From positions 1 to 62,568 of IMG/VR virus record IMGVR_UViG_3300011417_000010: a stretch of 62,568 nt of DNA; one strand, given 5' to 3'. The notes beneath the pieces were generated by a model, which saw only the letters and a program-made list of their open reading frames with translations, searched no databases and was not told the origin of the DNA. Shown piece by piece: positions 1 through 45,653 of this stretch; the first letter of the stretch is position 1, and the number at the start of each line of letters is the position of its first letter. The stretch is from a virus (Duplodnaviria; Caudoviricetes). The position numbers and the translations under genes are program-made.

Positions 1-2970
1 GACGCCGGCCCGGTGAACATCTCGCACGGCACCATTCGCGGTGTCGCCTGCATGCCGAACAAGATCAAGGGCGTCCACTTCGACGAGGAGAAGGGCATCC
101 TGCACACGCAGAAGGGCTCGTTCCCGCTCTACAACCCTGACAAGGGGTTCCAGATGAAGGAGGACGGTGCGGGCACTCCGCACTACGAGAACGGCGTGCT
201 CCACGTTGCTAAGGGCACCGACACGTCTGGCTTCCACAACGGTCCAAGCCCTGGTTTCCGCGAGATCTACAACTCGAAGCCGATCGAGGATTTTCACTCG
301 GGCAAGGTCATGCCGAACTGGGTGCGCAATCACGAGCTGGCGAAGAGCGGGAAGACGCCCGACGAGGTCATCATGCACGCGGCGGTATTCTCGATGCTCT
401 CGCCGAACACTCCCGTGCGCCCGCACGAGCTGATGTACTCACACATGGTCGACACGTGGGAGGATCTCGGCATCGACCCGCGCGACGAGCACTTCAAGAA
501 GGCGAAGAAGCACTGGTTGAACAAGGACCAGCCGAAGGGCTACCCGCGCCTCGCGACCGACTACTTCAAGACCCACGAGGACGTCCACCTGGGCAACGCC
601 AGTGAGGGTAAGGGCCGCGAGAAGGGCGACCTGATGTCGTTCATGCTCGGCGAGAACAAGTTCGCGAACATCTCGAAGTACCACAAGCTCCACAGCACGC
701 TGACGGACCTGGTGCGCAAGCACGGTCACGACGCGCGCTCCGCGACGGCGGAGCTGATGAAGATGAAGCAGGAGCACGGGAAGTGGAAGACCCGTCGCCA
801 GGTCTTCAAGTCCAAGGTGAAGCAGCTCGCGGTCGAAAAGATGGGGCTCAAGAACCACTTCTCCGACTTCGTCGGCAAGGCCGTCGAGAAGGCTCGCGCC
901 GCAGGCCTGATGGGTAAGAAGGGTGAGTCCAAGACGGGCGACTCCGCTATCAAGAAGCGCTTCGAGGCCGAGGCCAAGAAGAAGGGTTTGAAGAACGACC
1001 TCGACGACTACGCCGAGAAGGCGACCCAGAGCAAAATCGGTGACTACAAGGGCACCGAGGTCCCGGGGCTCGCCCCAAAGACGGGGCGCTTCACGTTCAC
1101 GATGCTCGGTGGCGGCAACAGCTTCGTCCCCGACACGCACATCATCCGCCACCTGTTCGGCATGGACAATAAGAAGGACAGCGACACCCTCGCGTACATG
1201 AAGTCCGTGTTGTGGAACCCGAATAACCACCACGTCCTCGAAGGCATGGACAAGTGGTACGCGAAGAACCACCCGGCTGCGCAGCTGATGCAGAACCACG
1301 AGCAGTGGGGCAAGCACTTCCAGGACGACAAGGAGCAGGCGAACTTCCCCGCGTTCTGGCGCCACTGGTGCTCGATCGCTCAGGACGAGCGCAACCGCGG
1401 CATGCCGAACCAGTCGGCGAACGAGTTCTCGACCCATGAGCCGTTCTGGCTCGGCATCCAGAAGTTTGTCAAGAGCGAGGCTCCGGACGAGCGCATGGTC
1501 GCGAAGATGATCGCGCTGCACGACCGCTACCAGAAGGACTACGGCGAGATCCCGGCGCAGATGATGTTCTTCCAGCACATCCTTCCCCACCTGTGGGAGG
1601 CCGCGGAGCACCGCCAGAAGCACGACGACCTCGCGGACTTCGCGAAGTCGATTGCGCACATCCACACACTCGACATCTCGCTCCGCAAGAGCGCTGAGGA
1701 AGCCGCCGTATCCCTGTACAACGACGCGATGGTGCCTACTATTCACGATGTGCACTACCACGTCGACGGGAACGAGCACCGTGCAGGTAGGTTCGTTATC
1801 CACAACAACCGACTCAAGCACCTGGAGGACCACCGTGGCCTACTGGAGCACCTGTTGCCAGAGGGCCCGGTGACCCTGAAGACCATCTCGGCCATCCACG
1901 GTCTGAAGATGTCGCCACACCTGCGCGTCTCGGTCGTGCCCGTCGAGACCCCGAAGCAGGAGCCGGCCACTAGGTCCCCCGAGCAGAAGGTCGCCGATGC
2001 GCAGCCCGTGCGACCGCCGTCGGTGTTCGAGTACCACCGAGCCGGCCACGACCACCCGCACACATTGGAGGTCAAGGACGGGCACTATATGCTCGATGGT
2101 GAGCACTTGTCCCACCCAGAGGTCCAGGCGATTTTGGAGAACCACAAATCTGGTGCTGCAACTATCCGCTACAGGTCTGGCGGGAAGTCGCCGATGGAAC
2201 AGATTAGGAAAATGGAGGAAGCTTTCTCACAGTTTCTTCCGATGAGGAAGGCCGAGGGCGAGTTCACGACCGAGGAGATGGTGAACCACGCTCGTCGGAT
2301 GGAGTCCATGGGTCACGTTCCCAAGGGCTACTCGGACACGCTGAACAAGATGCTCCACGAGGACACCCTCGTACCTGGCGTTGGTAACAAGGCCGCGGCC
2401 GGCCACTTCCTGACGAAGCAGAAGCCGGGCGTGTACGTTTCGATGGACGGCAACGACTTCGGCAAGGTCAACAAGGCCTTCGGCCAGCACGTCGGTGACC
2501 AGGCGATCACCGCGATGGGCGGCGCGCTTCGCTCGGCGTCCGACGAGGCGACCCCGGGCGTGGGCAAGGTGTTCCGCAACGGTGGCGACGAGTTCGTCGC
2601 GCACTTCCCGTCGCACGAACACGCCGCGAAGTTCATGCGCTCGGTTCACCAGAAGCTGCAGGACGTCCCAGCCATCGGTGGCGCCCACAAGCTCAGTTTC
2701 TCGTTCGGCTTCGGTACCGACCTGCATCAGGCGAACCATGCTCTTCTCGCGGCCAAGCAGCAGAAGGTCCACCCGACCACCGGGCAGGCTCTCTACGGTG
2801 TCGGCCAGACGCCGAACATGGCGCATTCGCTGGTGCCCGGCCACGAGGGCCCGCTTCCCGTGCACGACACGGAGAGCGAGATGATGCACCAGACGATGAA
2901 GGCGCCCGCGAGTGCTACGCCGAAGCCGATTCCGGCCCCGCCTGCGGCTCCGAAGTCGGCTGCTGCCTAA
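1..2970 (+). CDS. Large multidomain protein (probably 5'-truncated): HhH-GPD DNA glycosylase/AP-lyase-like domain + C-terminal GGDEF nucleotide cyclase domain
   Basis: Frame is open from base 1. VPGLAPKTGRF..VPDTHIIRHLF matches the HhH motif with catalytic Lys/Asp. SMDGNDFGKVNKAFGQHVGD..FRNGGDEF is a canonical GGDEF signature. Several LxKS/A motifs lie between the domains. Confidence 0.75.
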   Translation, partial: DAGPVNISHGTIRGVACMPNKIKGVHFDEEKGILHTQKGSFPLYNPDKGFQMKEDGAGTPHYENGVLHVAKGTDTSGFHNGPSPGFREIYNSKPIEDFHSGKVMPNWVRNHELAKSGKTPDEVIMHAAVFSMLSPNTPVRPHELMYSHMVDTWEDLGIDPRDEHFKKAKKHWLNKDQPKGYPRLATDYFKTHEDVHLGNASEGKGREKGDLMSFMLGENKFANISKYHKLHSTLTDLVRKHGHDARSATAELMKMKQEHGKWKTRRQVFKSKVKQLAVEKMGLKNHFSDFVGKAVEKARAAGLMGKKGESKTGDSAIKKRFEAEAKKKGLKNDLDDYAEKATQSKIGDYKGTEVPGLAPKTGRFTFTMLGGGNSFVPDTHIIRHLFGMDNKKDSDTLAYMKSVLWNPNNHHVLEGMDKWYAKNHPAAQLMQNHEQWGKHFQDDKEQANFPAFWRHWCSIAQDERNRGMPNQSANEFSTHEPFWLGIQKFVKSEAPDERMVAKMIALHDRYQKDYGEIPAQMMFFQHILPHLWEAAEHRQKHDDLADFAKSIAHIHTLDISLRKSAEEAAVSLYNDAMVPTIHDVHYHVDGNEHRAGRFVIHNNRLKHLEDHRGLLEHLLPEGPVTLKTISAIHGLKMSPHLRVSVVPVETPKQEPATRSPEQKVADAQPVRPPSVFEYHRAGHDHPHTLEVKDGHYMLDGEHLSHPEVQAILENHKSGAATIRYRSGGKSPMEQIRKMEEAFSQFLPMRKAEGEFTTEEMVNHARRMESMGHVPKGYSDTLNKMLHEDTLVPGVGNKAAAGHFLTKQKPGVYVSMDGNDFGKVNKAFGQHVGDQAITAMGGALRSASDEATPGVGKVFRNGGDEFVAHFPSHEHAAKFMRSVHQKLQDVPAIGGAHKLSFSFGFGTDLHQANHALLAAKQQKVHPTTGQALYGVGQTPNMAHSLVPGHEGPLPVHDTESEMMHQTMKAPASATPKPIPAPPAAPKSAAA

Positions 2971-6375: not shown

Positions 6376-6429
6376 ATCTGGGGCCCCGGATGGCTCGGAG
6401 TGTAAGAACGCCGCGTGGCGGGGCCACCC

Positions 6430-14894: not shown

Positions 14895-15203
14895 ATGCAG
14901 ATCCGCCCTCAAGAAATTGACTACAAGAAGGACATCGGGACCCTGGACGGTCGCCCCGTCATCGAGCTTGGTCTCAAGGGCGGTCTGCACCTGGTGCTGA
15001 CCACCCACGGCCCCAAGATCGACTACCTGGGGGTCGGACCTCACCGCGCGGTCGCCCGGTTCATGGCCAAGAAGCGCCAGCCCAACATCCTCTTCACGGA
15101 GCTGTCGAAAGCCGACGACGTAGCTCCCGAGCACTTCCAGCACCTGGTTCCTCAGTACGAGGCGATGCTGGGTCAGCTCTGCGCGCTCAACCCCCGGAAG
15201 TAA
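14895..15203 (+). CDS. Hypothetical late protein
   Basis: AATCTT upstream; contains LSKAD. Confidence 0.6.
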   Translation: MQIRPQEIDYKKDIGTLDGRPVIELGLKGGLHLVLTTHGPKIDYLGVGPHRAVARFMAKKRQPNILFTELSKADDVAPEHFQHLVPQYEAMLGQLCALNPRK

Positions 15204-27616: not shown

Positions 27617-30127
27617 ATGGCTCTGAGTTTCGCAACCCCAGCTGGCGTGATGAAGATTCCCAGCGCTCGCTCGACCATCAACGTGGTCCAGCAGGCGTCT
27701 GGTCTCGCTACGACCGGCATCATCATGATCGTCGGTGAGGCGGACCAGGGTCCGGACTTCACGCAGGAAGAGGACCTGGCGGACAACCTGTTCGGCCCGA
27801 ACCAGATCGGTGAGGTCCGCGCCAAGTACGGCACGGGTCGCATCGTCGACGCGTTCAACGGCATCGCCGTCCCCGCCAACGACCCCCAGATCCAGGGTGC
27901 TCCTGCCGGCATCATCATCGTGAAGACGAACGCGGGCAGCAAGGCCGACGCGACGCTCACGAAGTTCGACGACACCGACTACGGTACGCTCGAAGACCGC
28001 ACGTGGGGCAAGCTCGGCAACCTGATCTCGTACCTCATCGAGGCCCGCACCGAGGAAGAGGTCCCGACCACGGGCGAGTTCGCCATCGCGCACCCGTCCT
28101 CGTCCACCAACATCTCTGTTCGCGTGAACGGCGGTACGGCTCTGTCCGCCACCCTCGCCGCGCTCGACAGCCCCGCCACGATGGCCGCCACCATCGGCGC
28201 GCTCGCTGGCGTCGACACTACGGGCGCTGTGTCTCGCGCGGTGCTCACCAACACGACCGGTACGCTCGCGATCACGGTCACGGTCGGTAACCACGTCACG
28301 ATCGACCGCAGCATCGCGTTCAACAACCTCCCATCGACGGGTGACTCGCTGTTCATCCCGACGACCTCGGCGATGGCGACGTCGAACGCTGCCGCGGCCG
28401 GTTCGTACATCGTGACGGGCGCCAGCTCGACGCAGATCCAGGCCGTCAAGGTCCTGGACGCGACGGGTGTGGCTACCATCACCCCGCCGACCAGCAAGGC
28501 CGCAACGGCCATCGTCGGCACGAGCGACGTCAACGCGTGGAGCCCCCTCGCGATCCACCTCGTCGAGTCCATCGACCCCCTCGATGGCTACGGCAAGAAC
28601 CTGCAGATCAACCAGCTGACCTCGGGCACCGACATCCTCGCGTCGATCTGCTACACGCTCAGCGACGCTGGTGAGCCCGTGGCGGTCGACTGGATCTCGA
28701 AGACGGCGGAGCCTCACCTGATCGTTTCGGAGTCGGAGTACTCGGTCACCCTGACCGAGGCGCGCCAGCTCGACAACATCACGAACGACATCTCGGCGGG
28801 CGGTACCATCGCGCTCAAGCTCGGCTACGAGGGCACCACCGGCTCGGCCGTGGTCGACTCGACGGACATCACGATCACCACGACTGGTGGCTCGACCCCG
28901 GGCACGCTGGCTGTGGCGCTCGCGGACTTCCCCAGCATCGCCGACCTCGCGTCCTACATCAACTCGTTCGCGGGTTTCACGTGCACCCCCGGCTCGGGCG
29001 TCATGGGCTCGCAGCCCTCGACCAGCCTCGACCAGGGCACGTTCGGCATCTGCTCGACCTTCAGCGACCTGACCCCGGGCCGCATCAAGCAGGACGCGTA
29101 CAAGCTCTTCAACACGCTGGCCAACGACGGCTTCCTCACGGAGCTGTCGGAGCAGGCGGACTCGGGTCTCCCGGCTCCGTCGGTGGGCCTCGCGTTCCTC
29201 ACGGGCGGCGCCAAGGGCGCGACGACGAACGCCGACATCCAGGCCGGGTACGACGCGCTCAAGATGGTCCGCGGCAACTTCCTCGTCCCGCTGTTCTCAC
29301 GTGACGCTGCTGACGACATCGCGGACGGTCAGACCGACGCGGCCTCGACCTACACGATCGCTGCGGTCCACGCTGGCGCTCGCTCGCACGTACTCCAGAT
29401 GAGCACGTTCAAGAAGGGCCGCAACCGCCAGGCGTTCCTCTCGATGCGCGACGACTTCGACGACGTGAAGGACGCTGCGACGGACCTGAACTCTGCACGT
29501 GTCTCGCTCACGTTCCAGGACGTGCGCGACCTCGACACCAACGGCAACGTGACCCAGTTCCAGCCGTGGATGAACTCGTGCAAGGCCGCGGGCATGCAGG
29601 CCGCGGGCTTCTACAAGGCCATCTTCAACAAGGGCATCAACATCAGCGGCGCCATCCAGGCCGCGACGGACTTCAACGACCAGGACGACGACGCGGTCGA
29701 GGAAGGCCTCGACGCCGGCCTCCTGATCGTCCGTCGCCCCGAGGACGGTGGATTCAAGTACGTGTCCGACCAGACGACGTACGGCAAGGACGACAACTTC
29801 GTCTACAACAGCATCCAGGCGGTCTACGCGGCGGACACCATCGCGCTGACCACCGCGAAGCTGATGGAGCAGGCGTTCGTCGGCCAGTCCCTCGCTGACG
29901 TGAGCGCCTCGCTCGCGCTGAGCACCCTCGAAGGCATCATGGAGAACCTGCGTCGGCTGAAGCTGATCGCGTTCTCGGACGACGCCCCCAAGGGCTTCAA
30001 GAACGCGGTCATCCGCATCAGCGGACCGGCCATGGTTGTCTCGGTCGAGGTGAAGGCGGCCACCGCGCTGTACTTCATCCCGATCACCTTCCAGGTGTCT
30101 CAGATCCAGCAGTCGGCCAGCTCGTAA
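27617..30127 (+). CDS. Tail sheath protein
   Basis: 836 aa; IMIVGEADQGP N-terminus, FLTGGAKG, C-terminal LYFIPITF; upstream of the tube gene. Confidence 0.85.
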   Translation: MALSFATPAGVMKIPSARSTINVVQQASGLATTGIIMIVGEADQGPDFTQEEDLADNLFGPNQIGEVRAKYGTGRIVDAFNGIAVPANDPQIQGAPAGIIIVKTNAGSKADATLTKFDDTDYGTLEDRTWGKLGNLISYLIEARTEEEVPTTGEFAIAHPSSSTNISVRVNGGTALSATLAALDSPATMAATIGALAGVDTTGAVSRAVLTNTTGTLAITVTVGNHVTIDRSIAFNNLPSTGDSLFIPTTSAMATSNAAAAGSYIVTGASSTQIQAVKVLDATGVATITPPTSKAATAIVGTSDVNAWSPLAIHLVESIDPLDGYGKNLQINQLTSGTDILASICYTLSDAGEPVAVDWISKTAEPHLIVSESEYSVTLTEARQLDNITNDISAGGTIALKLGYEGTTGSAVVDSTDITITTTGGSTPGTLAVALADFPSIADLASYINSFAGFTCTPGSGVMGSQPSTSLDQGTFGICSTFSDLTPGRIKQDAYKLFNTLANDGFLTELSEQADSGLPAPSVGLAFLTGGAKGATTNADIQAGYDALKMVRGNFLVPLFSRDAADDIADGQTDAASTYTIAAVHAGARSHVLQMSTFKKGRNRQAFLSMRDDFDDVKDAATDLNSARVSLTFQDVRDLDTNGNVTQFQPWMNSCKAAGMQAAGFYKAIFNKGINISGAIQAATDFNDQDDDAVEEGLDAGLLIVRRPEDGGFKYVSDQTTYGKDDNFVYNSIQAVYAADTIALTTAKLMEQAFVGQSLADVSASLALSTLEGIMENLRRLKLIAFSDDAPKGFKNAVIRISGPAMVVSVEVKAATALYFIPITFQVSQIQQSASS

Positions 30128-30650: not shown

Positions 30651-30690
30651 GAGGCACCTGGGACTTCTTCCTCCTTTCACCCAGCTGCCC

Positions 30691-31131
30691 TTACAGAGCC
30701 GGGATCTCCTTATCGGGATCCCGGCTCTTTTTTTGTCTGAAGTACGTTCTATTGCGATGGCAGTTCGCGCAAACTAGCTGACATTTTGCAATTTCTTTCA
30801 AGATTTTGTCCCGTGAGGCTCGGGGGCTCAGATAGGAGACGTTCCCGTTCTTCTTAAACCCTGGTAGGTGGTCGAAGTCCATGATCCACGACGGATACTG
30901 CACACCACAATCGGTACAAGGGCCATTCTTTATCGAATCAATCCATCGCGCTACGGCCCTCTTCTGCTCTCTGTTTTGTGTGCGATATTGGCGCTTATTT
31001 CGTTGGTAGTGGTCGTCTTTGTAGGCTTTTTGGCACACTCGACAGAATGGTTGAAGGCCGCTTTTGCTTTTCTTTCTAGCTGAAAAGGCTCCGGCCTCTT
31101 TGGATTCGTGGCACTTAATACATGTGGGCAT
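30691..31131 (-). CDS. HNH endonuclease (probable mobile homing endonuclease)
   Basis: CTDCG..MDFDHL..KCQLVCANCHR; visibly AT-richer than its flanks; AATCTT on the minus strand at 31140-31145. Confidence 0.85.
   Translation of the reverse strand: MPTCIKCHESKEAGAFSARKKSKSGLQPFCRVCQKAYKDDHYQRNKRQYRTQNREQKRAVARWIDSIKNGPCTDCGVQYPSWIMDFDHLPGFKKNGNVSYLSPRASRDKILKEIAKCQLVCANCHRNRTYFRQKKSRDPDKEIPAL
30695..30734 (+). terminator. Intrinsic terminator
   Basis: AGAGCCGGGATC..GATCCCGGCTCT stem followed by a T-tract. Confidence 0.85.
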
Positions 31132-33473: not shown

Positions 33474-33794
33474 ATGCCCACCCCCCACCCGCTGATCGGG
33501 GTCCACGAGGACCGCATCACCCGCCTCGAAGAGGACGTGACCGAGTGTCGCGTGGAGCTTGGCGTGTTGAAGTCGCAGCTGGCCTCTGGGATCGACATGC
33601 TGTCCCAGAAGTTGGATGACGTAGGCGAGGTCAAGACGCGCGTGGACGCCCTATTGCAGCACCACGATGTCGATGCTGAGGTCCGCAGTCAAACGCGCGA
33701 GCGTCGTGTTCGCTTCTTTAAGATCGGTGGCGTTGTCGTCACCGCGACCGCCGCAGTCGCCGGCCTCGTACTGAAGATCATCTTGGGGGAGTAA
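33474..33794 (+). CDS. Coiled-coil protein with C-terminal TM (holin/hemolysin-like)
   Basis: RITRLEE coiled coil plus C-terminal TM; GGAG RBS; AATCTT upstream. Confidence 0.55.
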   Translation: MPTPHPLIGVHEDRITRLEEDVTECRVELGVLKSQLASGIDMLSQKLDDVGEVKTRVDALLQHHDVDAEVRSQTRERRVRFFKIGGVVVTATAAVAGLVLKIILGE

Positions 33795-33798
33795 GCCT

Positions 33799-34125
33799 GT
33801 GGGCAAGACCAAGATCAAACAGCTCGTCCAGAAGAAGTGGAACCTCGGACATCTTCGATCGCAGAAGTTCGCAGGCCTTATTTTCTGCACCACGCTGTGC
33901 TTCTGCGCTGGGTTGTTTCAGTACAGTGAGCCGACGACCTCCGTGGTCATCATGGGCATTGTCGGATGCTTCACTGCGTTCGTTGGCGGTCGTGCGTGGA
34001 GCGACAACGCGGCCATGAAGTTTGGTGGATTTCCTCCCAACACGACTGACGACGAGGTCAGTGTCGTGCGCCGTAGGCCGAAGAAGAACGACGAAGAAAA
34101 GGACAAAGAACGTGAAGTCGATTAA
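33799..34125 (+). CDS. Putative holin
   Basis: LRSQKF followed by two TM segments and a highly charged C-terminus. Confidence 0.5.
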   Translation: MGKTKIKQLVQKKWNLGHLRSQKFAGLIFCTTLCFCAGLFQYSEPTTSVVIMGIVGCFTAFVGGRAWSDNAAMKFGGFPPNTTDDEVSVVRRRPKKNDEEKDKEREVD

Positions 34126-34549
34126 GCGAATCCTCAAGACCCAGCCCCCGACGATCTACAAGAGGGTCGACGAGGTGGAGGTTGGCGGTCCCATCGGCCG
34201 CTGGTTCCACAAGCACAACTGGGGCGCGATGACGATCCCGTTCCCGTTCTTCGTGCTCATCATGTACTGGAGTTCGGAGGACGCGCCCGACGGCGAGGTT
34301 CACCCGCTGGTGCGCGTGCACGAGTTCACTCACGTCGCGCAGGACCAGCTCGACCGCTTCTGGTTCGTGTCGTGGGCGAAGTACCTCTGGTGGCTGTTCT
34401 CGGGCGTGCCGTGGAAGAAGGTCTTCAAGCGCGAGATGGGCATCATCGATGGGTTCATGGACTCGTACTACCACGTGCCGTACGAGCAAGAGGCCTACGC
34501 CGTCGAGCAAGAGGCCGAAGAGAACGGCTTGCCCGCCTGGGCGAAGTAG
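34112..34549 (+). CDS. HExxH metallopeptidase-like protein (DUF4157-like)
   Basis: VHEFTHVAQ..PYEQEAY. Confidence 0.6.
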   Translation: MKSIKRILKTQPPTIYKRVDEVEVGGPIGRWFHKHNWGAMTIPFPFFVLIMYWSSEDAPDGEVHPLVRVHEFTHVAQDQLDRFWFVSWAKYLWWLFSGVPWKKVFKREMGIIDGFMDSYYHVPYEQEAYAVEQEAEENGLPAWAK

Positions 34550-34567
34550 AGTAGAATCCCGGTCGTC

Positions 34568-34741
34568 ATGGCCGTTGACCGCTACAAGAACAAGATCAAG
34601 CACGCTGCGTGGACGTGGCGCGAGGAGAAGGTCTCCCGCTACCACCTCCCCGCGCGTCGCAAGGATCGTGCGTCGGGGCGCAACGACAAGCGCTCCGCTC
34701 GTCAGGAAGACCGTCGCGACATTTTCGAGGAGTCAGAATGA
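34568..34741 (+). CDS. Small basic protein (57 aa)
   Basis: ATG 34568; ATGA overlap with the next ORF. Confidence 0.45.
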   Translation: MAVDRYKNKIKHAAWTWREEKVSRYHLPARRKDRASGRNDKRSARQEDRRDIFEESE

Positions 34742-34881
34742 ACCCGTTTCGCTACATCAAGGACCACGCTCCGAACCCAAAGAACTCCGATGGAGGAATC
34801 CTCGCTGTCGTTGGGTACTACGTCGCTATCCTGGCAGTGGCCGGTGGCGTCATCGGTCTGGTCTGCAAGATCCTGCTCTAG
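34738..34881 (+). CDS. Small membrane protein
   Basis: GAGGAG RBS; single TM segment. Confidence 0.5.
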   Translation: MNPFRYIKDHAPNPKNSDGGILAVVGYYVAILAVAGGVIGLVCKILL

Positions 34882-34969
34882 AAAATTTGACAGGGCGCGG
34901 ACACCCTTGGGTCGGGGCGCTTCAATCATGGGTTCAATCAACCTGGGCCTGTCCATTCACTTGACGTAG

Positions 34970-34990
34970 AGATTCGCTAGAGGTAATCTT
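34970..34990 (+). promoter_or_regulatory. Tandem promoter motifs for tRNA operon 1
   Basis: AGATTCGCTA-N5-AATCTT. Confidence 0.65.
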
Positions 34991-35002
34991 AGGATCACCC
35001 CG

Positions 35003-35050
35003 ATGTTCCGTCAGTTGCTATCCCCTTTGTCTCTGTTGCTGCTCGCGTAA
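35003..35050 (+). CDS. Putative leader peptide MFRQLLSPLSLLLLA (7 Leu) of the tRNA-Leu operon
   Basis: AGGA 8 nt upstream of ATG; lies between the promoter motifs and three tRNA-Leu genes; stop codon sits in the CTCGC-GTAA-GCGAG hairpin. Confidence 0.65.
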   Translation: MFRQLLSPLSLLLLA

Positions 35051-35093
35051 GCGAGTACAAGCACACCCGCGCGCGCAGCGCGCACAGAAATAG

Positions 35094-35177
35094 GCGATCG
35101 TGGCGGAATTGGTAGACGCGCGGGCTTGAGGTGCCCGTGGGCTAACGCCCGTGCAGGTTCGAGTCCTGTCGATCGCA
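35094..35177 (+). tRNA. tRNA-Leu(GAG)
   Basis: GCGATCG/CGATCGC acceptor; CGGGC-TTGAGGT-GCCCG; long variable arm; TTCGAGT loop. Confidence 0.92.
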
Positions 35178-35182
35178 CCCTT

Positions 35183-35260
35183 GCCACTGTAGCCCAACCG
35201 GAAGGAGGCGCTCCGCTCAGAACGGAGACAGTGTGGGTTCGAATCCCATCAGTGGTACCA
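35183..35260 (+). tRNA. tRNA-Leu(CAG), short variable loop
   Basis: CTCCG-CTCAGAA-CGGAG; TTCGAAT; encoded CCA. Confidence 0.88.
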
Positions 35261-35261
35261 T

Positions 35262-35335
35262 GCGCTCGTAGCTCAACTGGAAGAGGCAGAGGCTTCAAAC
35301 CCCTCGTGTTGTCGGTTCGAATCCGACCGGGCGTA
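35262..35335 (+). tRNA. tRNA-Leu(CAA), short variable loop
   Basis: GAGGC-TTCAAAC-CCCTC (C31:C39 mismatch); Leu-type D arm; A discriminator. An alternative register would give TCA. Confidence 0.7.
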
Positions 35336-35352
35336 CTTGACAAGCTGCAGAG

Positions 35353-35373
35353 AGATTTGCTAGACATAATCTT
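35353..35373 (+). promoter_or_regulatory. Tandem promoter motifs for tRNA operon 2
   Basis: AGATTTGCTA-N5-AATCTT, same spacing as operon 1. Confidence 0.65.
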
Positions 35374-35385
35374 GAGAGAAGTTCC

Positions 35386-35517
35386 ATGAACGCTGAGATC
35401 ACATCGTACGTCGGCAGCACGGGTCAACGAACCCGACGCCAGACGTATATTCAGCGTCATACCCAGCGCCCACGACAGGGTGCGTTCGACCGCTTCGATC
35501 CCACCAGGGATCAATAA
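35386..35517 (+). CDS. Putative 43-aa leader peptide of tRNA operon 2 (MNAEITSYVGSTGQRTRRQTYIQRHTQRPRQGAFDRFDPTRDQ)
   Basis: Lies between the promoter motifs and the first tRNA; composition matches the downstream tRNA set; embedded in a long hairpin. Confidence 0.65.
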   Translation: MNAEITSYVGSTGQRTRRQTYIQRHTQRPRQGAFDRFDPTRDQ

Positions 35518-35521
35518 GCGC

Positions 35522-35544
35522 AAAAAGCCGGGACGCCCGGCAAA
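35522..35544 (-). terminator. GC hairpin with T-tract on the minus strand
   Basis: AAAAA-GCCGGG-ACG-CCCGGC-AAAG on the plus strand. Confidence 0.45.
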
Positions 35545-35552
35545 GATCGAAC

Positions 35553-35626
35553 GGCACCCTAGCTCAGTCTGGTAGAGCGGCGCCCTGAAAAGGCGCGCGT
35601 CCCTGGTTCAAATCCAGGGGGTGTCA
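35553..35626 (+). tRNA. tRNA-Phe(GAA)
   Basis: GCGCC-CTGAAAA-GGCGC; canonical cloverleaf. Confidence 0.92.
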
Positions 35627-35634
35627 CTGCTCTT

Positions 35635-35709
35635 CCCGCTGTAAGCTTCCGGTGAGGCTGCTCCACTGTCTATGGAGTGAGACGAGTTCAACTCTCGTCA
35701 GCGGGGCCA
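35635..35709 (+). tRNA. tRNA-Asp(GTC)
   Basis: CTCCA-CTGTCTA-TGGAG; G discriminator; CCA. Confidence 0.88.
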
Positions 35710-35734
35710 GACATCCTCACCAACGCGTCGATCG

Positions 35735-35805
35735 CTGGGCGTAGGATATTGGGTATCTCCCGGTCCCGGAAGCCGGTTAAGCAGGTTCGATTCCTGCCGC
35801 CCAGA
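35735..35805 (+). tRNA. tRNA-Pro(CGG)
   Basis: CTGGGCG/CGCCCAG acceptor; loop CCCGGAA (C33). Confidence 0.8.
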
Positions 35806-35810
35806 CCCAT

Positions 35811-35884
35811 GGTGGCCGTAGTGTACTGGCTGTGCACGTCGTGCTGTGAACACGGAAGTTCCGGATCGTAACCGGACAGTCACC
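35811..35884 (+). tRNA. tRNA-His(GTG)
   Basis: G-1 and C discriminator; loop CTGTGAA; atypical T-loop ATCGTAA. Confidence 0.85.
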
Positions 35885-35919
35885 CTTCTTTGAAAATTAA
35901 ATAGCTGACCATGTTCTTT

Positions 35920-36003
35920 GGGGACGTATACCGGTAGAGGGCCGGGGCAGATTGTAAACCTGTCGTCTCGGCTCCGTAGGCGCAACTCCTACCGGCCCCA
36001 CCA
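35920..36003 (+). tRNA. tRNA-Tyr(GTA)
   Basis: Loop TTGTAAA; long variable region; ACCA end; atypical D and T loops. Confidence 0.75.
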
Positions 36004-36005
36004 AT

Positions 36006-36076
36006 GCTGGTGTCGTTCAATGGCAGGACACTCCCTTCGTACGGTAGAAATGAGGGTTCGATTCCTTCTTCCAGCT
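36006..36076 (+). tRNA. tRNA-Thr(CGT)
   Basis: Loop TTCGTAC; GCTGG/CCAGC acceptor with mismatches. Confidence 0.75.
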
Positions 36077-36083
36077 CAGCAGT

Positions 36084-36157
36084 GCCGGCGTCGTTCAACG
36101 GCAGGACAGCTGCCCAGTAAGCAGCCTATGAGGGTTCAATTCCTTCCCCCGGCTCCA
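36084..36157 (+). tRNA. tRNA-Thr(AGT)
   Basis: GCTGC-CCAGTAA-GCAGC; CCA; paralogous to the preceding Thr tRNA. Confidence 0.82.
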
Positions 36158-36163
36158 AAATAT

Positions 36164-36237
36164 TGCCTTGTCGTCTAGCGGCAGGATGCCTGACTCTGAC
36201 CCAGGTGACGATCGTTCGAATCGATCCGAGGCAACCA
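36164..36237 (+). tRNA. tRNA-Gln(CTG)
   Basis: Loop CTCTGAC; U1 acceptor; CCA. Confidence 0.88.
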
Positions 36238-36238
36238 C

Positions 36239-36309
36239 ACGCGAATAGTTCAGTGGCAGAACTGCCGCCCGATTAGCGGCTGACGAGGGTTCGATTCCCT
36301 ACTCGCGTA
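36239..36309 (+). tRNA. tRNA-Ile(GAT)
   Basis: GCCGC-CCGATTA-GCGGC (C33, U37); A discriminator. Confidence 0.75.
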
Positions 36310-36314
36310 CTCAT

Positions 36315-36389
36315 CTCGTCGTGGTGGAATGGACATCACGTAGCCCTGCGAAGGCTGAATTCCAGGTTCGACTCCTGGCGGCGAGACCA
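36315..36389 (+). tRNA. tRNA-Arg(GCG)
   Basis: TAGCC-CTGCGAA-GGCTG; CCA. Confidence 0.88.
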
Positions 36390-36390
36390 A

Positions 36391-36462
36391 CCCCTGATAG
36401 TGGAATGGACACCACGCTCCGCTTCGAACGGTGAAGTCCGGGTTCAACTCCTGGTCGGGGGA
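36391..36462 (+). tRNA. tRNA-Arg(TCG)
   Basis: CTCCG-CTTCGAA-CGGTG; D arm nearly identical to the preceding Arg tRNA. Confidence 0.85.
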
Positions 36463-36467
36463 CAAGA

Positions 36468-36539
36468 TCCCCTGTCGTCTAACGGCAGGATGTCGGCCTT
36501 TGACTCCCGACGATGCTCGTTCGAATCGAGCCGGGGGAA
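36468..36539 (+). tRNA. tRNA-Gln(TTG) with one extra base in the anticodon arm
   Basis: TCGGC-CTTTGAC-TCCCGA; D and T arms match the Gln(CTG) paralog. Confidence 0.75.
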
Positions 36540-36565
36540 CATTTTGAAAGGAGCGGCAGCGCGGG

Positions 36566-37093
36566 TTAGGACCCCGAGACCTCAGTGTCTCTGGTGGGGG
36601 TCGCCCGCGCTGCCGCGGGAGCGCCTACTGATTCGAGCGCGTACTCGGTACAGTCGCGGCATGGCTTGTCGCCATCGGCTTGGATGCAGTCGGCGAACTC
36701 GTGCGGCGTGCTCACCCACACGAACGGTCGCCAGGGCCTCGGGCCCTGCGGCTTGCGCACCCCGTCAGCCCCCGCCCTCCACCTCCCGGCACGCTTGTGC
36801 TGCTTGTCGGGGCTCTTCGGGTTGGGCACGCGCACAAACCTCTGGAACACGGTCGGCTCCTTCGATCCTGGCTTCACCGAGGTTTCCGCGGCCTGGTAGA
36901 AGCTCAGGACGTACTTCTCGCGATCCCCGTCGCCGGCCACGCCGCGGTTCAGCTGGCCCTTGTGCCAGGTGTTCCTGCGCTCCGCGCACGGCCCGCAGTA
37001 GGCCACGCCCCATCGGCGGTCGAAGTCGCCCGAAGCGGGGTGGTAGGGACCCCCACAACAGAAGCATCGCGTCGGTGGATCCGTGGTGTCCAT
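36566..37093 (-). CDS. Hypothetical protein with zinc finger
   Basis: CFCC..CGPC; sigma70 promoter upstream. Confidence 0.55.
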   Translation of the reverse strand: MDTTDPPTRCFCCGGPYHPASGDFDRRWGVAYCGPCAERRNTWHKGQLNRGVAGDGDREKYVLSFYQAAETSVKPGSKEPTVFQRFVRVPNPKSPDKQHKRAGRWRAGADGVRKPQGPRPWRPFVWVSTPHEFADCIQADGDKPCRDCTEYALESVGAPAAARATPTRDTEVSGS

Positions 37094-37102
37094 CAGACTC
37101 AC

Positions 37103-37142
37103 AATCTACTTGAGTAGACCCGATCTGTCAATAGATTCGCTA
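37103..37142. promoter_or_regulatory. Divergent promoters: sigma70-type (minus) and AGATTCGCTA (plus)
   Basis: Minus strand TTGACA-17-TAGATT (37131-37103); plus-strand motif at 37133-37142. Confidence 0.6.
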
Positions 37143-37150
37143 GGAAATAC

Positions 37151-37882
37151 ATGGGAGGCCCCTTGAAATCACTCCTTGCCGCGCTCGTGTTTTTGTTCAC
37201 CCTCTCGACTGCGCACGCGGCGGGGCTCACCCAGCCTCCCCCGTTCAACCCCGTCATCGTCCCCATGCTCTCGCCTCCCGTCGCGCCCTTCACCGCGCGG
37301 GCCGCGCCGGCAGGGGTGACGCCAGGCACCGTTCGCGCATTCCGTCTTTCAGCTCCGATCGACGCTGGCGCCGTCAGGGCGGTCACCGAGTTCTTGGAGA
37401 GGGCTCGCCAGGACCACACCGAGATTGTCATGATCGAGATGACGACCCCGGGCGGTAGCTACGGCGCTGGCCACGACATCTCGCGTCAGATCGAGAACTC
37501 TCCCGTCACGGTCGTATGCGTCGCCGACAGCATGGTAGCGTCCATGGGCCTCTACATCCTCCAGTCGTGTGACCGCAGGGTCATCACCACGCGTGGGATC
37601 TTGATGGCTCACAGCGCGCTCACGAGCACGCCCGAGGCGATGGAGAACGAGCACGACCTGCAGAACAAGGTCAACCTGCTGAAGGCGCTCAACCGAGCGT
37701 ACGGCAGTCACGTCGTCCTCCGCGCGAATATCACCATCGACCAGTACCTCGCCCGCATCGCGGACGGCAAGGAGTGGTGGATCAACGCCGACGAGGCCCT
37801 GAAGGTCGGTCTGGCGGACACCATCTGGAAGGGCACGCCCAGCGCCCTACTGAAGGCGCTCAAAGACGGCCAGAGGCCCTAG
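37151..37882 (+). CDS. ClpP/crotonase-fold serine protease with signal peptide
   Basis: TPGGS, VASMG (Ser), LMAH (His), EWWINADEALKVGLAD; signal peptide ending AHA. Confidence 0.75.
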   Translation: MGGPLKSLLAALVFLFTLSTAHAAGLTQPPPFNPVIVPMLSPPVAPFTARAAPAGVTPGTVRAFRLSAPIDAGAVRAVTEFLERARQDHTEIVMIEMTTPGGSYGAGHDISRQIENSPVTVVCVADSMVASMGLYILQSCDRRVITTRGILMAHSALTSTPEAMENEHDLQNKVNLLKALNRAYGSHVVLRANITIDQYLARIADGKEWWINADEALKVGLADTIWKGTPSALLKALKDGQRP

Positions 37883-38235
37883 CGGAACAGGTCCTGGATC
37901 GCCCTCAAGGGCTTGGTGGTCTTGTCCTCTAGACCCTTGAGTGCTTTCCGCAGCATCTTCTGGGCCAGACCCCACTCGAACCCCTCCTCCAGCACCGCGT
38001 CGAAGTAGGCGCCCAGTGCCTCGGCCGTGGCAGCGCTGTAGGCTGCTTCCACCGCGCTCGCGGCCATCGGCATGACGTTGTGCTCCAGCGTGTCGGGCTC
38101 GGGGCACTCCACCTGAGGTATGCTGCCACCGGCCTGGACCAGCATAGAGTCTTCGTACCTCCACCTACCTGTCTTGTTCGGGTCCGATAGTACGACCGAC
38201 CCGTCCGCCCGGATGTCGATGAGCTTCCGCGGCAT
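37879..38235 (-). CDS. Hypothetical protein
   Basis: GGAGAGG RBS. Confidence 0.55.
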   Translation of the reverse strand: MPRKLIDIRADGSVVLSDPNKTGRWRYEDSMLVQAGGSIPQVECPEPDTLEHNVMPMAASAVEAAYSAATAEALGAYFDAVLEEGFEWGLAQKMLRKALKGLEDKTTKPLRAIQDLFR

Positions 38236-45194: not shown

Positions 45195-45600
45195 GGGCCT
45201 GAACCGGTATCGACTGGTGAACAAGGAACTGAGACGCGTGCCGAGGTTGGTCATCAGGCCTCGTAAAAAGAAGACCAAAACACAAAAGCGAAGAACGATG
45301 AGTTCGACGTCCCGTTCGACCTGGTGGTCGCGGCGGGTTTCGGTGGTGGTCCCAGCGCTCGCGCTTGGAACTAACCATTGAAGATCGGCGAGTAGAGGTC
45401 CCAGGTACCTCGTCGATTCAAAACTAGGGAACGTCTAGTCGGAGCGAATCTGGCTTGTTCTTGGACGTAAACCAAGTGGTGGAGGGCGCCGGAAACGGAT
45501 CGTGGAGGTTCTCGACCTCCCGCCCCCGAAATCGAGAAACGCACGTATAAAGCTTGGTTACGAAGTCGCTAGGACCGCGGTTCGACTCCGCGCAGGTCCA
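45195..45600 (+). ncRNA. ssrA: tmRNA
   Basis: 5' GGGCCTG..GGTATCGAC pairs with 3' GGAC-CGCGG-TTCGACT-CCGCG-CAGGTCC-A, giving the G3:U70 Ala identity pair; internal tag frame 45288-45374 starts GCG after an A-rich stretch. Confidence 0.88.
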
Positions 45601-45653
45601 CTTAGTTTTACTGTAGCACTTAGATTCGCTAGATAATAACTTAAGGAGTACGC

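Follow-up and report, generated by a model that had tools for sequence, protein, structure and literature searches.

Short reading frames before phage tRNA runs mirror the amino acids of the runs that follow and may serve as ribosome-mediated sensors of tRNA supply

Short open reading frames (ORFs) were found directly before runs of tRNA genes in a phage genome fragment and in related phages, and the amino acid composition of each frame mirrors its own tRNA run. The stretch analyzed, hereafter the window, is the whole of virus record IMGVR_UViG_3300011417_000010, a linear virus contig of 62,568 bases with a G+C content of approximately 62% and a CheckV completeness estimate of 38%. Its sequence marks it as part of the genome of an uncultured myovirus, with Myxococcus phage Mx1 as a distant relative. 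Two such frames, referred to as leaders, lie in the window: ORF1 before tRNA-Leu genes, and ORF2 before a longer array that begins with tRNA-Phe. The mirroring extends across at least five specificities and two clades and is frame-specific, being weaker for the Phe array. The findings comprise the frames with their conservation, the way they match the tRNA sets, and a conserved structure; from these we infer that the leaders are translated, in which direction they would exert control and at which step. The leaders may be ribosome-mediated sensors of cognate aminoacyl-tRNA supply that tune the expression of phage tRNAs, and a probability of roughly 0.5 was assigned to this reading.

ORF1 and the tRNA genes behind it are as follows.

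35003 to 35050, + strand: leader ORF1, MFRQLLSPLSLLLLA and a stop codon
35094 to 35179, + strand: tRNA-Leu(GAG), called by ARAGORN and by the Rfam tRNA model (54.7 bits)
35183 to 35260, + strand: tRNA-Leu(CAG), called by ARAGORN and by the Rfam tRNA model
35262 to 35336, + strand: a 75-nucleotide (nt) tRNA called by ARAGORN and Rfam, with the anticodon CAA by homology or TCA (selenocysteine, SeC) by ARAGORN

The Leu-rich mini-frame claimed at 35003 in the initial annotation was confirmed in every letter described. Its codons are ATG TTC CGT CAG TTG CTA TCC CCT TTG TCT CTG TTG CTG CTC GCG TAA, and 7 of the 15 sense codons are Leu codons (three TTG, two CTG, one CTC and one CTA), four of them consecutive, as had been claimed. 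TTG, CTG and CTC are exactly the codons of the three downstream tRNAs, GAG, CAG and the third, CAA-type tRNA. TTG had been described as uncommon in the surrounding genes, and it indeed accounts for 8% of the Leu codons in 54 gene-like ORFs (16,653 codons), while CTA accounts for 3%. When 15,843 segments of 14 codons from these genes were considered, seven or more Leu codons occurred in 0.013% and three or more TTG codons in none. Moreover, ORF1 was the sole frame with LLLL or with at least 45% Leu among 127 ATG-initiated ORFs of 10–25 codons in six frames. The statement that three tRNA-Leu genes follow holds for the first two, whereas ARAGORN calls the third SeC(tca). Homologues of this third tRNA were called Leu(caa) in six related loci. 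It has no long variable arm and shares 84.6% identity with a 75-nt "tRNA-Leu(tag)" in Streptomyces phage Karimac; in locus L002, a normal 85-nt Leu(caa) stands at the same place. It may be a class-I-shaped tRNA-Leu or a UGA reader, and with this caveat the count of three is probably right.

Homologous loci were found using two anchors: the conserved 145-residue HExxH protein just upstream of the tRNA region (34112–34549, with an invariant HEFTH) and the invariant 16-mer around the leader stop codon. Besides the window, six further loci were obtained (L002, L003, L005, L011, L016 and L020/L026, the last within G001, a complete 182-kb genome with terminal repeats), making seven in all. The initial annotation had named loss of the Leu codons in homologues as a finding that would speak against it; the codons were conserved in 7/7 loci. 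The ATG frame is present in 7/7 loci and ends 37–43 nt before the first tRNA, and the order Leu(GAG)-Leu(CAG)-Leu(CAA), followed by the Phe-Pro-His... array, is likewise kept in all seven. Although identity of the flanking protein drops to about 50% in several of these loci, the Leu leader frame is retained. The leaders have 13–51 codons, with 13–15 residues in 5/7 loci. The short forms are MFRQLLSPLSLLLLA in the window, MIRHLLSLSLLLA, MKFHRLLSLSLLLLA (two loci) and MFTRLLSRLSLLLA, and two long forms of 44 and 51 codons end in KKRLSLSLLLA and ELPRLSLLLA. All seven end in ...LSLLL(L)A with the TAA in the GUAA loop of an invariant hairpin, and TTG CTG CTC GCG TAA is invariant in 6/7 loci, one CTG being missing in L002. 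In a nucleotide alignment made blind to frame, all gaps within the frame were of 3 nt, whereas gaps past the stop were of 1, 2, 3 or 4 nt. Synonymous differences within the frame include TCC/TCG, TTG/CTG and TCT/TCG. The N-termini of the long Leu leaders (MSTETVI(T)SVGSTGQ; L003 6475–6606, and L005) resemble the N-terminus of ORF2, MNAEITSYVGSTGQ (window 35386–35430), and from this likeness the 5' parts of the long Leu leaders and of ORF2 seem to have been exchanged or duplicated.

The mirroring is not confined to Leu. Leaders were picked as the first ATG within 33 nt after AATCT, a rule that in locus L162 also returned the end of an upstream gene. In G001, four tRNA runs stand behind AATCT, and each has exactly one frame starting no more than 33 nt from it.

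Leader MFTRLLSRLSLLLA, before Leu-Leu-Leu
A 46-codon leader rich in Thr, Arg, Gln, His, Pro and Ile, before Phe-Asp-Pro-His-Tyr-Thr-Thr-Gln-Ile-Arg-Arg-Gln
Leader MLTNTNVNVMIAEANKAEANVCAAGMGWAGGAKVEATLK, rich in Asn, Val, Ala, Gly and Lys, before Asn-Val-Val-Ala...Lys-Met-Gly-Gly-Lys-Trp-Glu
Ser leader MKRTSSSSPSSSSR, before tRNA-Ser(GCT)

Against the composition of the window proteome, residues belonging to the leader's own tRNA set numbered 6/13 in the Leu leader (binomial P 2.4e-4), 32/45 in the leader of the Phe array (P 3.9e-5) and 8/13 in the Ser leader (P 2.7e-7). In the leader of the Asn array, seen in one genome (G001), 31 of 38 residues were of the set (P 2.5e-6), compared with 9 and 12 of 38 in the other two frames; this set includes the tRNAs behind an inserted 88-codon gene, and Asn, Val and Ala alone give 18/38. 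When the four leaders were tabulated against the four tRNA sets, chi-square was 109.8 with 9 degrees of freedom (P 1.6e-19), and all these P values overstate independence because the tRNA sets were drawn after the peptides had been seen and the loci are related. Within the Asn run of G001, another promoter-like motif stands directly before tRNA-Met without any frame.

A Ser leader was also found, via a neighboring 141-residue protein, in L147 and L148 (identical here) and in L149. It reads GTG-KHLSSSSSSSSSSR, contains ten Ser residues using all six Ser codons, and has its TAA in the loop of GAGTCGC/GCGACTC, 10 nt before tRNA-Ser(CGA). The Ser leader of G001 lies approximately 102 nt from its tRNA-Ser. 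Overall, the Ser leaders contain 8–10 Ser residues written with five or six different codons of both Ser boxes, and because of this a nucleotide-level repeat or helix cannot explain the Ser runs. The prediction of a cognate leader also held in a more distant clade, represented by the complete 169-kb genomes G008 and G009, in which the anchor protein is 47–49% identical. There, the run Tyr-Phe-Pro-Leu(-Leu-Leu)-Ser-Ser stands behind a frame rich in Ser, Leu, Pro, Tyr and Phe. In the case of G009, 25/34 residues of the leader MVTRFSALLRLSSLRLPVCLSSYPASFSPSSYPSL belong to {Y,F,P,L,S} (P 7.9e-9), compared with 11 and 14 in the other frames, and in the case of G008, 23/32 residues of MVTRFSAQLRLSSLRLSVCPLSPSFSPSPYPSL do so. 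The stops lie 5 and 8 nt, respectively, before tRNA-Tyr. When the gaps upstream of tRNAs were inspected by eye in Myxococcus phage Mx1 (22 gaps) and Streptomyces phage Karimac (8 gaps before tRNAs), no cognate-rich frames were seen.

These compositions bear on the possibility that the frames are translated for a generic purpose, such as melting of the leader structure, ribosome–polymerase coupling, 5'-end protection or a by-product of a gene-type promoter, with the codons themselves not being sensed. The start context of TAATCTT followed by ATG is common to ordinary genes, the amino acid constraint is weak (pN/pS 0.70 in ORF2), and the length of ORF1 varies from 13 to 51 codons, all of which fit such a purpose. 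However, it leaves unexplained both the frame-specific mirroring by five different leaders and the retention of rare codons. Generic translation was considered improbable.

The second leader of the window and its array were also analyzed.

35386 to 35517, + strand: leader ORF2, MNAEITSYVGSTGQRTRRQTYIQRHTQRPRQGAFDRFDPTRDQ, conserved in 6/6 loci that reach this far
35553 to 36540, + strand: 10-tRNA array of Phe, Pro, His, Thr, Thr, Gln, Ile, Arg, Arg and one call with a 4-base anticodon (ARAGORN; Rfam)

ORF2 is a 43-codon frame located 35 nt before tRNA-Phe, and its homologues have 43–47 codons with the C-terminus GA[LF]DRFDP in 6/6 loci. Its pN/pS was 0.70 in frame, compared with 1.16 and 1.22 in the shifted frames. 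Codons ending in A or T numbered 16/42, compared with a gene mean of 6.3, and rare codons were over-used in both leaders: TTG and CTA in ORF1, and CGA, CAA, CAT, TAT and ATT in ORF2. The residues of ORF2 that match its tRNA set numbered 27/42, compared with 21/42 in both other frames. A stricter version, in which ORF2 would be an anticodon mirror, was weak and was set aside: 20/42 codons were strictly cognate in the window, compared with 11 and 16 off-frame, and 15/46 in L011, compared with 15 and 12 off-frame. As for the array itself, the tRNA at 36468–36540, to which ARAGORN gave the 4-base anticodon (ttga), has a Gln(ttg) at the same place in L011, L016 and L026 and is either a mis-call or a tRNA with an 8-nt anticodon loop. 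The 107-nt gap between tRNA-Phe and tRNA-Pro (35628–35734) contains a conserved tRNA-like piece, and the corresponding piece of L005 (8366–8440) gave a weak tRNA-Sec match (33.2 bits, E 0.007) below the gathering score.

The conserved C-terminus of ORF2 and the hydrophobic stretch at the end of ORF1 could indicate small functional peptides, either hydrophobic and Leu-rich or basic and RNA-binding, whose likeness to the tRNA sets is coincidental. Five independent coincidences would be required. Moreover, the 13–15 residues of ORF1 in 5/7 loci are too short for a membrane span, only the part overlapping RNA helices is conserved, and four leader peptides had no Pfam or PHROG family match. This explanation was regarded as highly improbable.

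The RNA structure of the leaders was then considered, with the following elements predicted in the window.

35032 to 35036, + strand: 5' strand of helix P1 (UCUGU), within Ser-Leu codons, pairing with 35084–35088
35037 to 35063, + strand: P2 hairpin, containing the last Leu codons, with the stop in a GUAA loop
35069 to 35083, + strand: P3 G+C hairpin GCGCGC-GCA-GCGCGC
35084 to 35088, + strand: 3' strand of P1 (ACAGA), at -10 to -6 from the tRNA 5' end in the minimum-energy fold
35484 to 35552, + strand: junction of the ORF2 leader in the minimum-energy fold of 6/6 loci, with P1' (35484–89 paired with 35547–52), P2' (35491–35520) and P3' (35527–41)

The Leu and Phe leaders, like every homologue of either, share one three-way junction as their minimum-energy fold. 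Helix P1 joins codons near the end of the frame to the 5' flank (-10 to -1) of the first tRNA, and the last codons lie in the P2 hairpin, with the stop in the GUAA loop (Leu leader) or just past the hairpin (Phe leader). Two pairings proposed in the initial annotation were borne out: the stop (35048–35050) lies in the loop of CTCGC-GTAA-GCGAG, the stem being 35042–46/35051–55, and TCTGT at 35032–36 is complementary to ACAGA at 35084–88 and paired with it in the minimum-energy fold. A helix equivalent to P1 was predicted in 7/7 loci with 96.8% of its alignment cells paired, the five core pairs of P2 are invariant in 7/7 loci, and P3 has one pair changed on both sides (C-G in four loci, G-C in two). 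Fold z-scores lay between -1.6 and -4.2 (Leu leaders) and between -1.9 and -5.0 (Phe leaders). Of the alignment cells in the Phe-leader helices, 96.1% are paired, and both sides are altered in four pairs, as in CUCGACCG/CGGUCGAG versus CUCGAUCG/CGAUCGAG and in GCCGGG/CCCGGC versus GCCGAC/GUCGGC. Its covariation score of 0.319 was reached by 0/500 shuffles, and slid controls gave 0.062 or less. For the Leu leader, the paired share is 98.3%, a single pair is altered on both sides, and 31/500 shuffles reached the score.

The effect of a ribosome on the junction was modeled using constrained folding. In the window, the mean probability of being unpaired for the -10 to -1 flank was 0.22 without a ribosome and rose to 0.54, 0.86 and 0.56 with a ribosome on Leu codons 5–6, on codons 11–14 and at the stop, respectively; in the Phe leader, the flank values were 0.39, 0.61 and 0.45. 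The earlier suggestion that ribosome position remodels the pre-tRNA leader is consistent with this model and with the conserved junction. When leader and tRNA were folded together, the minimum-energy structure paired the first codons (35000–35027) with 35092–35112, that is, the acceptor and the 5' half of the D-arm of tRNA-Leu(GAG), in 7/7 loci. Pairing with the tRNA body is not claimed, as shuffled 5' parts abolished the acceptor stem in 15–79% of cases and gave as many pairs in 5–53%.

A structured 5' leader of the pre-tRNA that serves processing or stability and is never translated, the open frame being incidental, would account for the almost invariant nucleotides of the Leu leader, third codon positions in helices included. 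Open frames are common at 62% G+C (others of 81 and 90 codons occur in L003 and L016), and the leaders have no strong Shine-Dalgarno sequence. Against this stand the in-frame gaps of 3 nt throughout, unlike the gaps past the stop, and the ATG or GTG at a fixed place behind TAATCT in all leaders. Furthermore, the Ser runs are written with five or six different codons, the compositional match is frame-specific, and CTTGCTATCC is conserved although it lies outside the predicted helices. An untranslated leader was judged very unlikely.

The output of a sensor could also be transcriptional. With the same sensing of codons, the ribosome position would decide polymerase read-through, via Rho or via non-canonical pausing or termination at P2/P3, which would be nearer to classical attenuation or to a tnaC-type system. 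Because the flank in the junction belongs only to the first tRNA of a run, this is a serious rival, since only such a switch would control all 3–12 tRNAs of a run at once. P2 looks similar to a classical pause hairpin, the G+C-rich hairpin P3 occupies the position of a terminator, and unpaired linkers between them are C-rich. However, a scan of the + strand from 34000 to 37500 returned no terminator; P3 is followed by ACAGAAAUAG, with U-poor equivalents in all loci, so that no U tract follows P3 in any locus. Inspection by eye revealed no conserved, mutually exclusive 2:3 antiterminator pairing, and a pairing of GCUGCUCGCG with the P3 region in the window is absent in L003. In addition, at most approximately 25 nt would be single-stranded, which is short for Rho loading. 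A transcriptional output was considered unlikely, while being taken seriously.

Promoter-like signals were found before both window leaders.

34962 to 34967, + strand: -35-like hexamer TTGACG, 17 nt upstream of TAATCT
34969 to 34981, + strand: recurrent phage motif GAGATTCGCTAGA, with four exact copies in the window, the second at 35352–35364 before ORF2
34984 to 34989, + strand: TAATCT, a likely -10 element
35337 to 35372, + strand: second promoter-like region, TTGACA ... GAGATTTGCTAGA ... TAATCT (23-nt repeat D12)

The promoter consensus scan did not flag TTGACG at 34962–34967. Near copies of GAGATTCGCTAGA stand before at least ten gene starts in the window. TAATCTT is over-represented (six copies in the window compared with 0.97 expected) and also precedes ordinary genes: it is followed by ATG within 8–13 nt at the genes at 14895, 16044 and approximately 52867 and at both window leaders. 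A 23-nt repeat of the promoter region occurs at 34968–34990 and 35351–35373, and the ATG lies 34 nt after the motif start in both. The leaders of G008 and G009 have TTGACA, 17 nt, TAATCT, 7 nt and ATG; in the window, the distance from TAATCT to ATG is 13 nt. If TAATCT is a -10 element, the transcript is predicted, on a sigma-70-like consensus, to start approximately 5–8 nt before the ATG at 35003. In that case, the frame would lie inside the transcript and the mRNA would be near-leaderless, with the AGGA at or before the 5' end. A start downstream of the ATG had been named as speaking against a leader; the best promoter-like site predicts one a few bases upstream. A broader motif, (G/T)AGATTCGCTAGA, was observed 3–35 nt before gene starts, often in the form GATTCGCTAGAAATAGGGTATG, with sites at 6428, 13274, 31173, 34969, 35352, 37132, 39327 (minus strand), 42582, 45621 and 61703. 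In the GATTCGCTAGAAATAGGGTATG form, the ATG follows a TAGAAA/TAGAAT-like hexamer by approximately 7 nt, which suggests leaderless mRNAs.

L005, L011 and L016 carry a structured insert of approximately 110–130 nt between the upstream motif and AATCTT. It lies at approximately 7290–7430 in L005, 4945–5058 in L011 and 2590–2700 (minus strand) in L016, and it is helix-rich and conserved. The insert of these three loci had no Rfam family match, and it may be an RNA element in the 5' untranslated region (UTR). Two metatranscriptomes share a small part of the window (0.12 and 0.05 of words). One contig of an RNA library bridges 35484–35726, from the end of ORF2 through tRNA-Phe and beyond, and it may be an unprocessed co-transcript or carried-over DNA. 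As none of the metatranscriptome contigs covers 34957–35043, they are uninformative on the Leu leader.

Returning to the sensor reading, the leaders would operate as follows. The leader transcript would begin a few bases behind a sigma-70-like promoter, and a ribosome would read the leader while RNA polymerase enters the tRNA genes. The last codons (Ser-Leu-Leu-Leu-Leu in the window) would form the 5' strands of two junction helices, the closing helix linking them to the 5' flank (-10 to -1) of the leading tRNA. When cognate aminoacyl-tRNAs are scarce, as might occur in early infection, with a host pool poor for rare codons such as TTG, or after tRNA loss, the ribosome would dwell on the last codons, the junction would be blocked, and the flank would be single-stranded and open to RNase P. 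When cognate tRNAs are plentiful, the ribosome would leave at the stop in the hairpin loop, the junction would close, and maturation or survival of the precursor would drop. The outcome would be negative feedback on the phage tRNA supply. This direction is favored because it is the sole one giving homeostasis, and it would explain codons matched to the anticodons of the phage itself. In its full form, the proposal is that these large soil myoviruses autoregulate each tRNA run via a bespoke codon-mirror leader, whose ribosome dwell time gates RNase P access or precursor survival through the three-way junction, sensing a poor or defense-depleted host pool and answering with their own tRNAs. The full form is plausible, and its chance was set a little short of even.

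Several observations weigh against the sensor reading or parts of it. With regard to codons, the CTA that is invariant in the Leu leaders is read by no phage tRNA, and only 3/8 Ser codons of the G001 Ser leader are read by the adjacent tRNA-Ser(GCT). How many Asp and Tyr codons ORF2 has does not depend on whether a locus carries tRNA-Asp or tRNA-Tyr; part of the match between ORF2 and its set arises because the sequence is A/C-rich, and a pN/pS of 0.70 reflects weak amino acid constraint. The overstated independence of the P values, given above, belongs here as well, and all the loci compared are metagenomic. With regard to expression, the AGGA noted in the initial annotation does lie 8 nt before the ATG (34991–34994), but a role as a Shine-Dalgarno site is improbable for it should TAATCT be the -10 element, as the 5' UTR would then be approximately 5–8 nt. 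With regard to structure, the Leu-leader fold is conserved but unproven by covariation, and its conservation could be at the level of sequence; single-sequence folds of the Asn and Ser leaders were no better than shuffles (z -0.98 and -1.18). Furthermore, no tRNA but the first of a run is contacted by the junction, which makes it difficult to envisage how RNase P access could govern an entire array, and no terminator or alternative antiterminator pairing was found at the leaders.

The leaders were compared with known systems. Amino acid operon attenuators (leuL, hisL, pheL, thrL, ilvL and trpL) likewise have a short frame behind the promoter, cognate regulatory codons with rare codons favored, and a stop beside or inside a hairpin. 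Attenuation leaders for several amino acids also exist, as in thr and ilv. The term "regulatory codons" is used as defined in the available text of PMC1183508. Unlike the genes under classical attenuators, the genes regulated here would be phage tRNAs, which neither make nor charge the amino acid, and what links the codons to the pre-tRNA 5' flank is a three-way junction, with no hairpin-plus-U terminator and no apparent 2:3 antiterminator. Covariance model searches (cmscan) of 33500–38000 at E ≤1 gave only tRNAs and one chance plastid match, with no Leu, His, Thr or Trp leader and no T-box, and those of five related loci at E ≤0.1 likewise gave no Rfam leader family or T-box. Thus, the likeness to leu attenuators raised earlier holds for the cognate-codon leader, while the leaders differ from classical attenuators in terminator and kind of regulated gene and probably in antiterminator, and the family is wider than Leu.

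T-box riboswitches are leader RNAs that likewise use a codon to gauge how much of a given tRNA is available, and they control genes for the same amino acid. In these RNAs, tRNA is bound directly, with no ribosome involved, and the hallmarks are Stem I, a specifier loop and the T-box sequence; here, in contrast, the codons stand in an open frame with a start and a stop. Leader peptides can also act without a classical terminator, as in tnaC (with Rho), mgtL and mgtP, where stalling of a ribosome at the final codons of a short frame, or close to them, alters the fate of the downstream transcript. The signals there are free tryptophan, proline or Mg2+, and the targets are protein-coding genes. 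The present leaders have no evident rut-like stretch of sufficient length. To our knowledge, the control of phage tRNA genes is largely undescribed, and we know of no tRNA operon with leader-peptide sensing. The trn operon of Anabaena is a long, stress-responsive tRNA array with the repressor TrcR (PMC8421152, PMC10272220, in their available text). It resembles the present arrays in responding to translational stress, with control there exerted by a protein repressor, and the available text of PMC10272220 has no mention of a leader peptide, attenuation, stalling, a uORF (upstream ORF) or a small ORF. Large phages carry tRNA runs, for which codon compensation or counter-defense has been proposed (PMC10264068); in its available text, that work concerns the tRNAs themselves and not leader frames or regulation. 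A need to replace depleted host tRNAs would give a phage reason to sense tRNA supply. Full-text searches of mostly open-access literature, covering main texts, revealed no account of a leader peptide preceding tRNA genes, whether in phages or in cells. In the open literature, no paper was found that ties the E. coli tRNA-Phe genes pheU/pheV to a leader peptide; the sequences flanking the E. coli tRNA-Phe genes have been the subject of old reports.

If the sensor reading is true, the logic of attenuation would extend from amino acid supply to tRNA supply, and translation would control the maturation of a non-coding RNA, giving ribosome-mediated feedback on non-coding RNA genes. Phage tRNA arrays would be demand-driven, which bears on the choice between codon compensation and counter-defense against tRNA-cleaving host systems. 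Moreover, the elements are small (approximately 100–250 nt), modular and available in at least five specificities, and they could serve as sensors of tRNA charging.

Further searches for related leaders were made in several ways. A DNA search of an annotated phage collection gave matches at the level of tRNAs only, with no homologous leader and no close relative. The use of the head maturation protease as an anchor added no leader loci, an exact 23-mer of the ORF1 start gave no matches, and a 20-mer search of a genome contig collection gave 0 matches. The HExxH protein at 34112–34549 had no PHROG family. A pattern search anchored on tRNAs returned nine stretches, consisting of four known loci and five chance matches. 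The promoter pattern returned at least 115 stretches, and among those listed, 12 had a G+C content above 0.52, none with a tRNA downstream.

Other features of the window place it among the phages.

27617 to 30127: tail sheath
37151 to 37882: head maturation protease

By tail sheath, the closest cultured phage was Myxococcus phage Mx1, with 43.7% identity over the full length. The stable RNA genes of the window are 13 tRNA genes and one transfer-messenger RNA (tmRNA) gene. The phage-borne tmRNA gene (45195–45601) has an unusual predicted tag, and a copy of the promoter-like motif follows it at 45621. On the minus strand, 30680–31110 is an A+T-richer stretch behind a strong terminator-like hairpin with a T run, and it contains a reverse-strand open frame. 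In G001, the tRNA runs are interrupted by HNH-type endonuclease genes.

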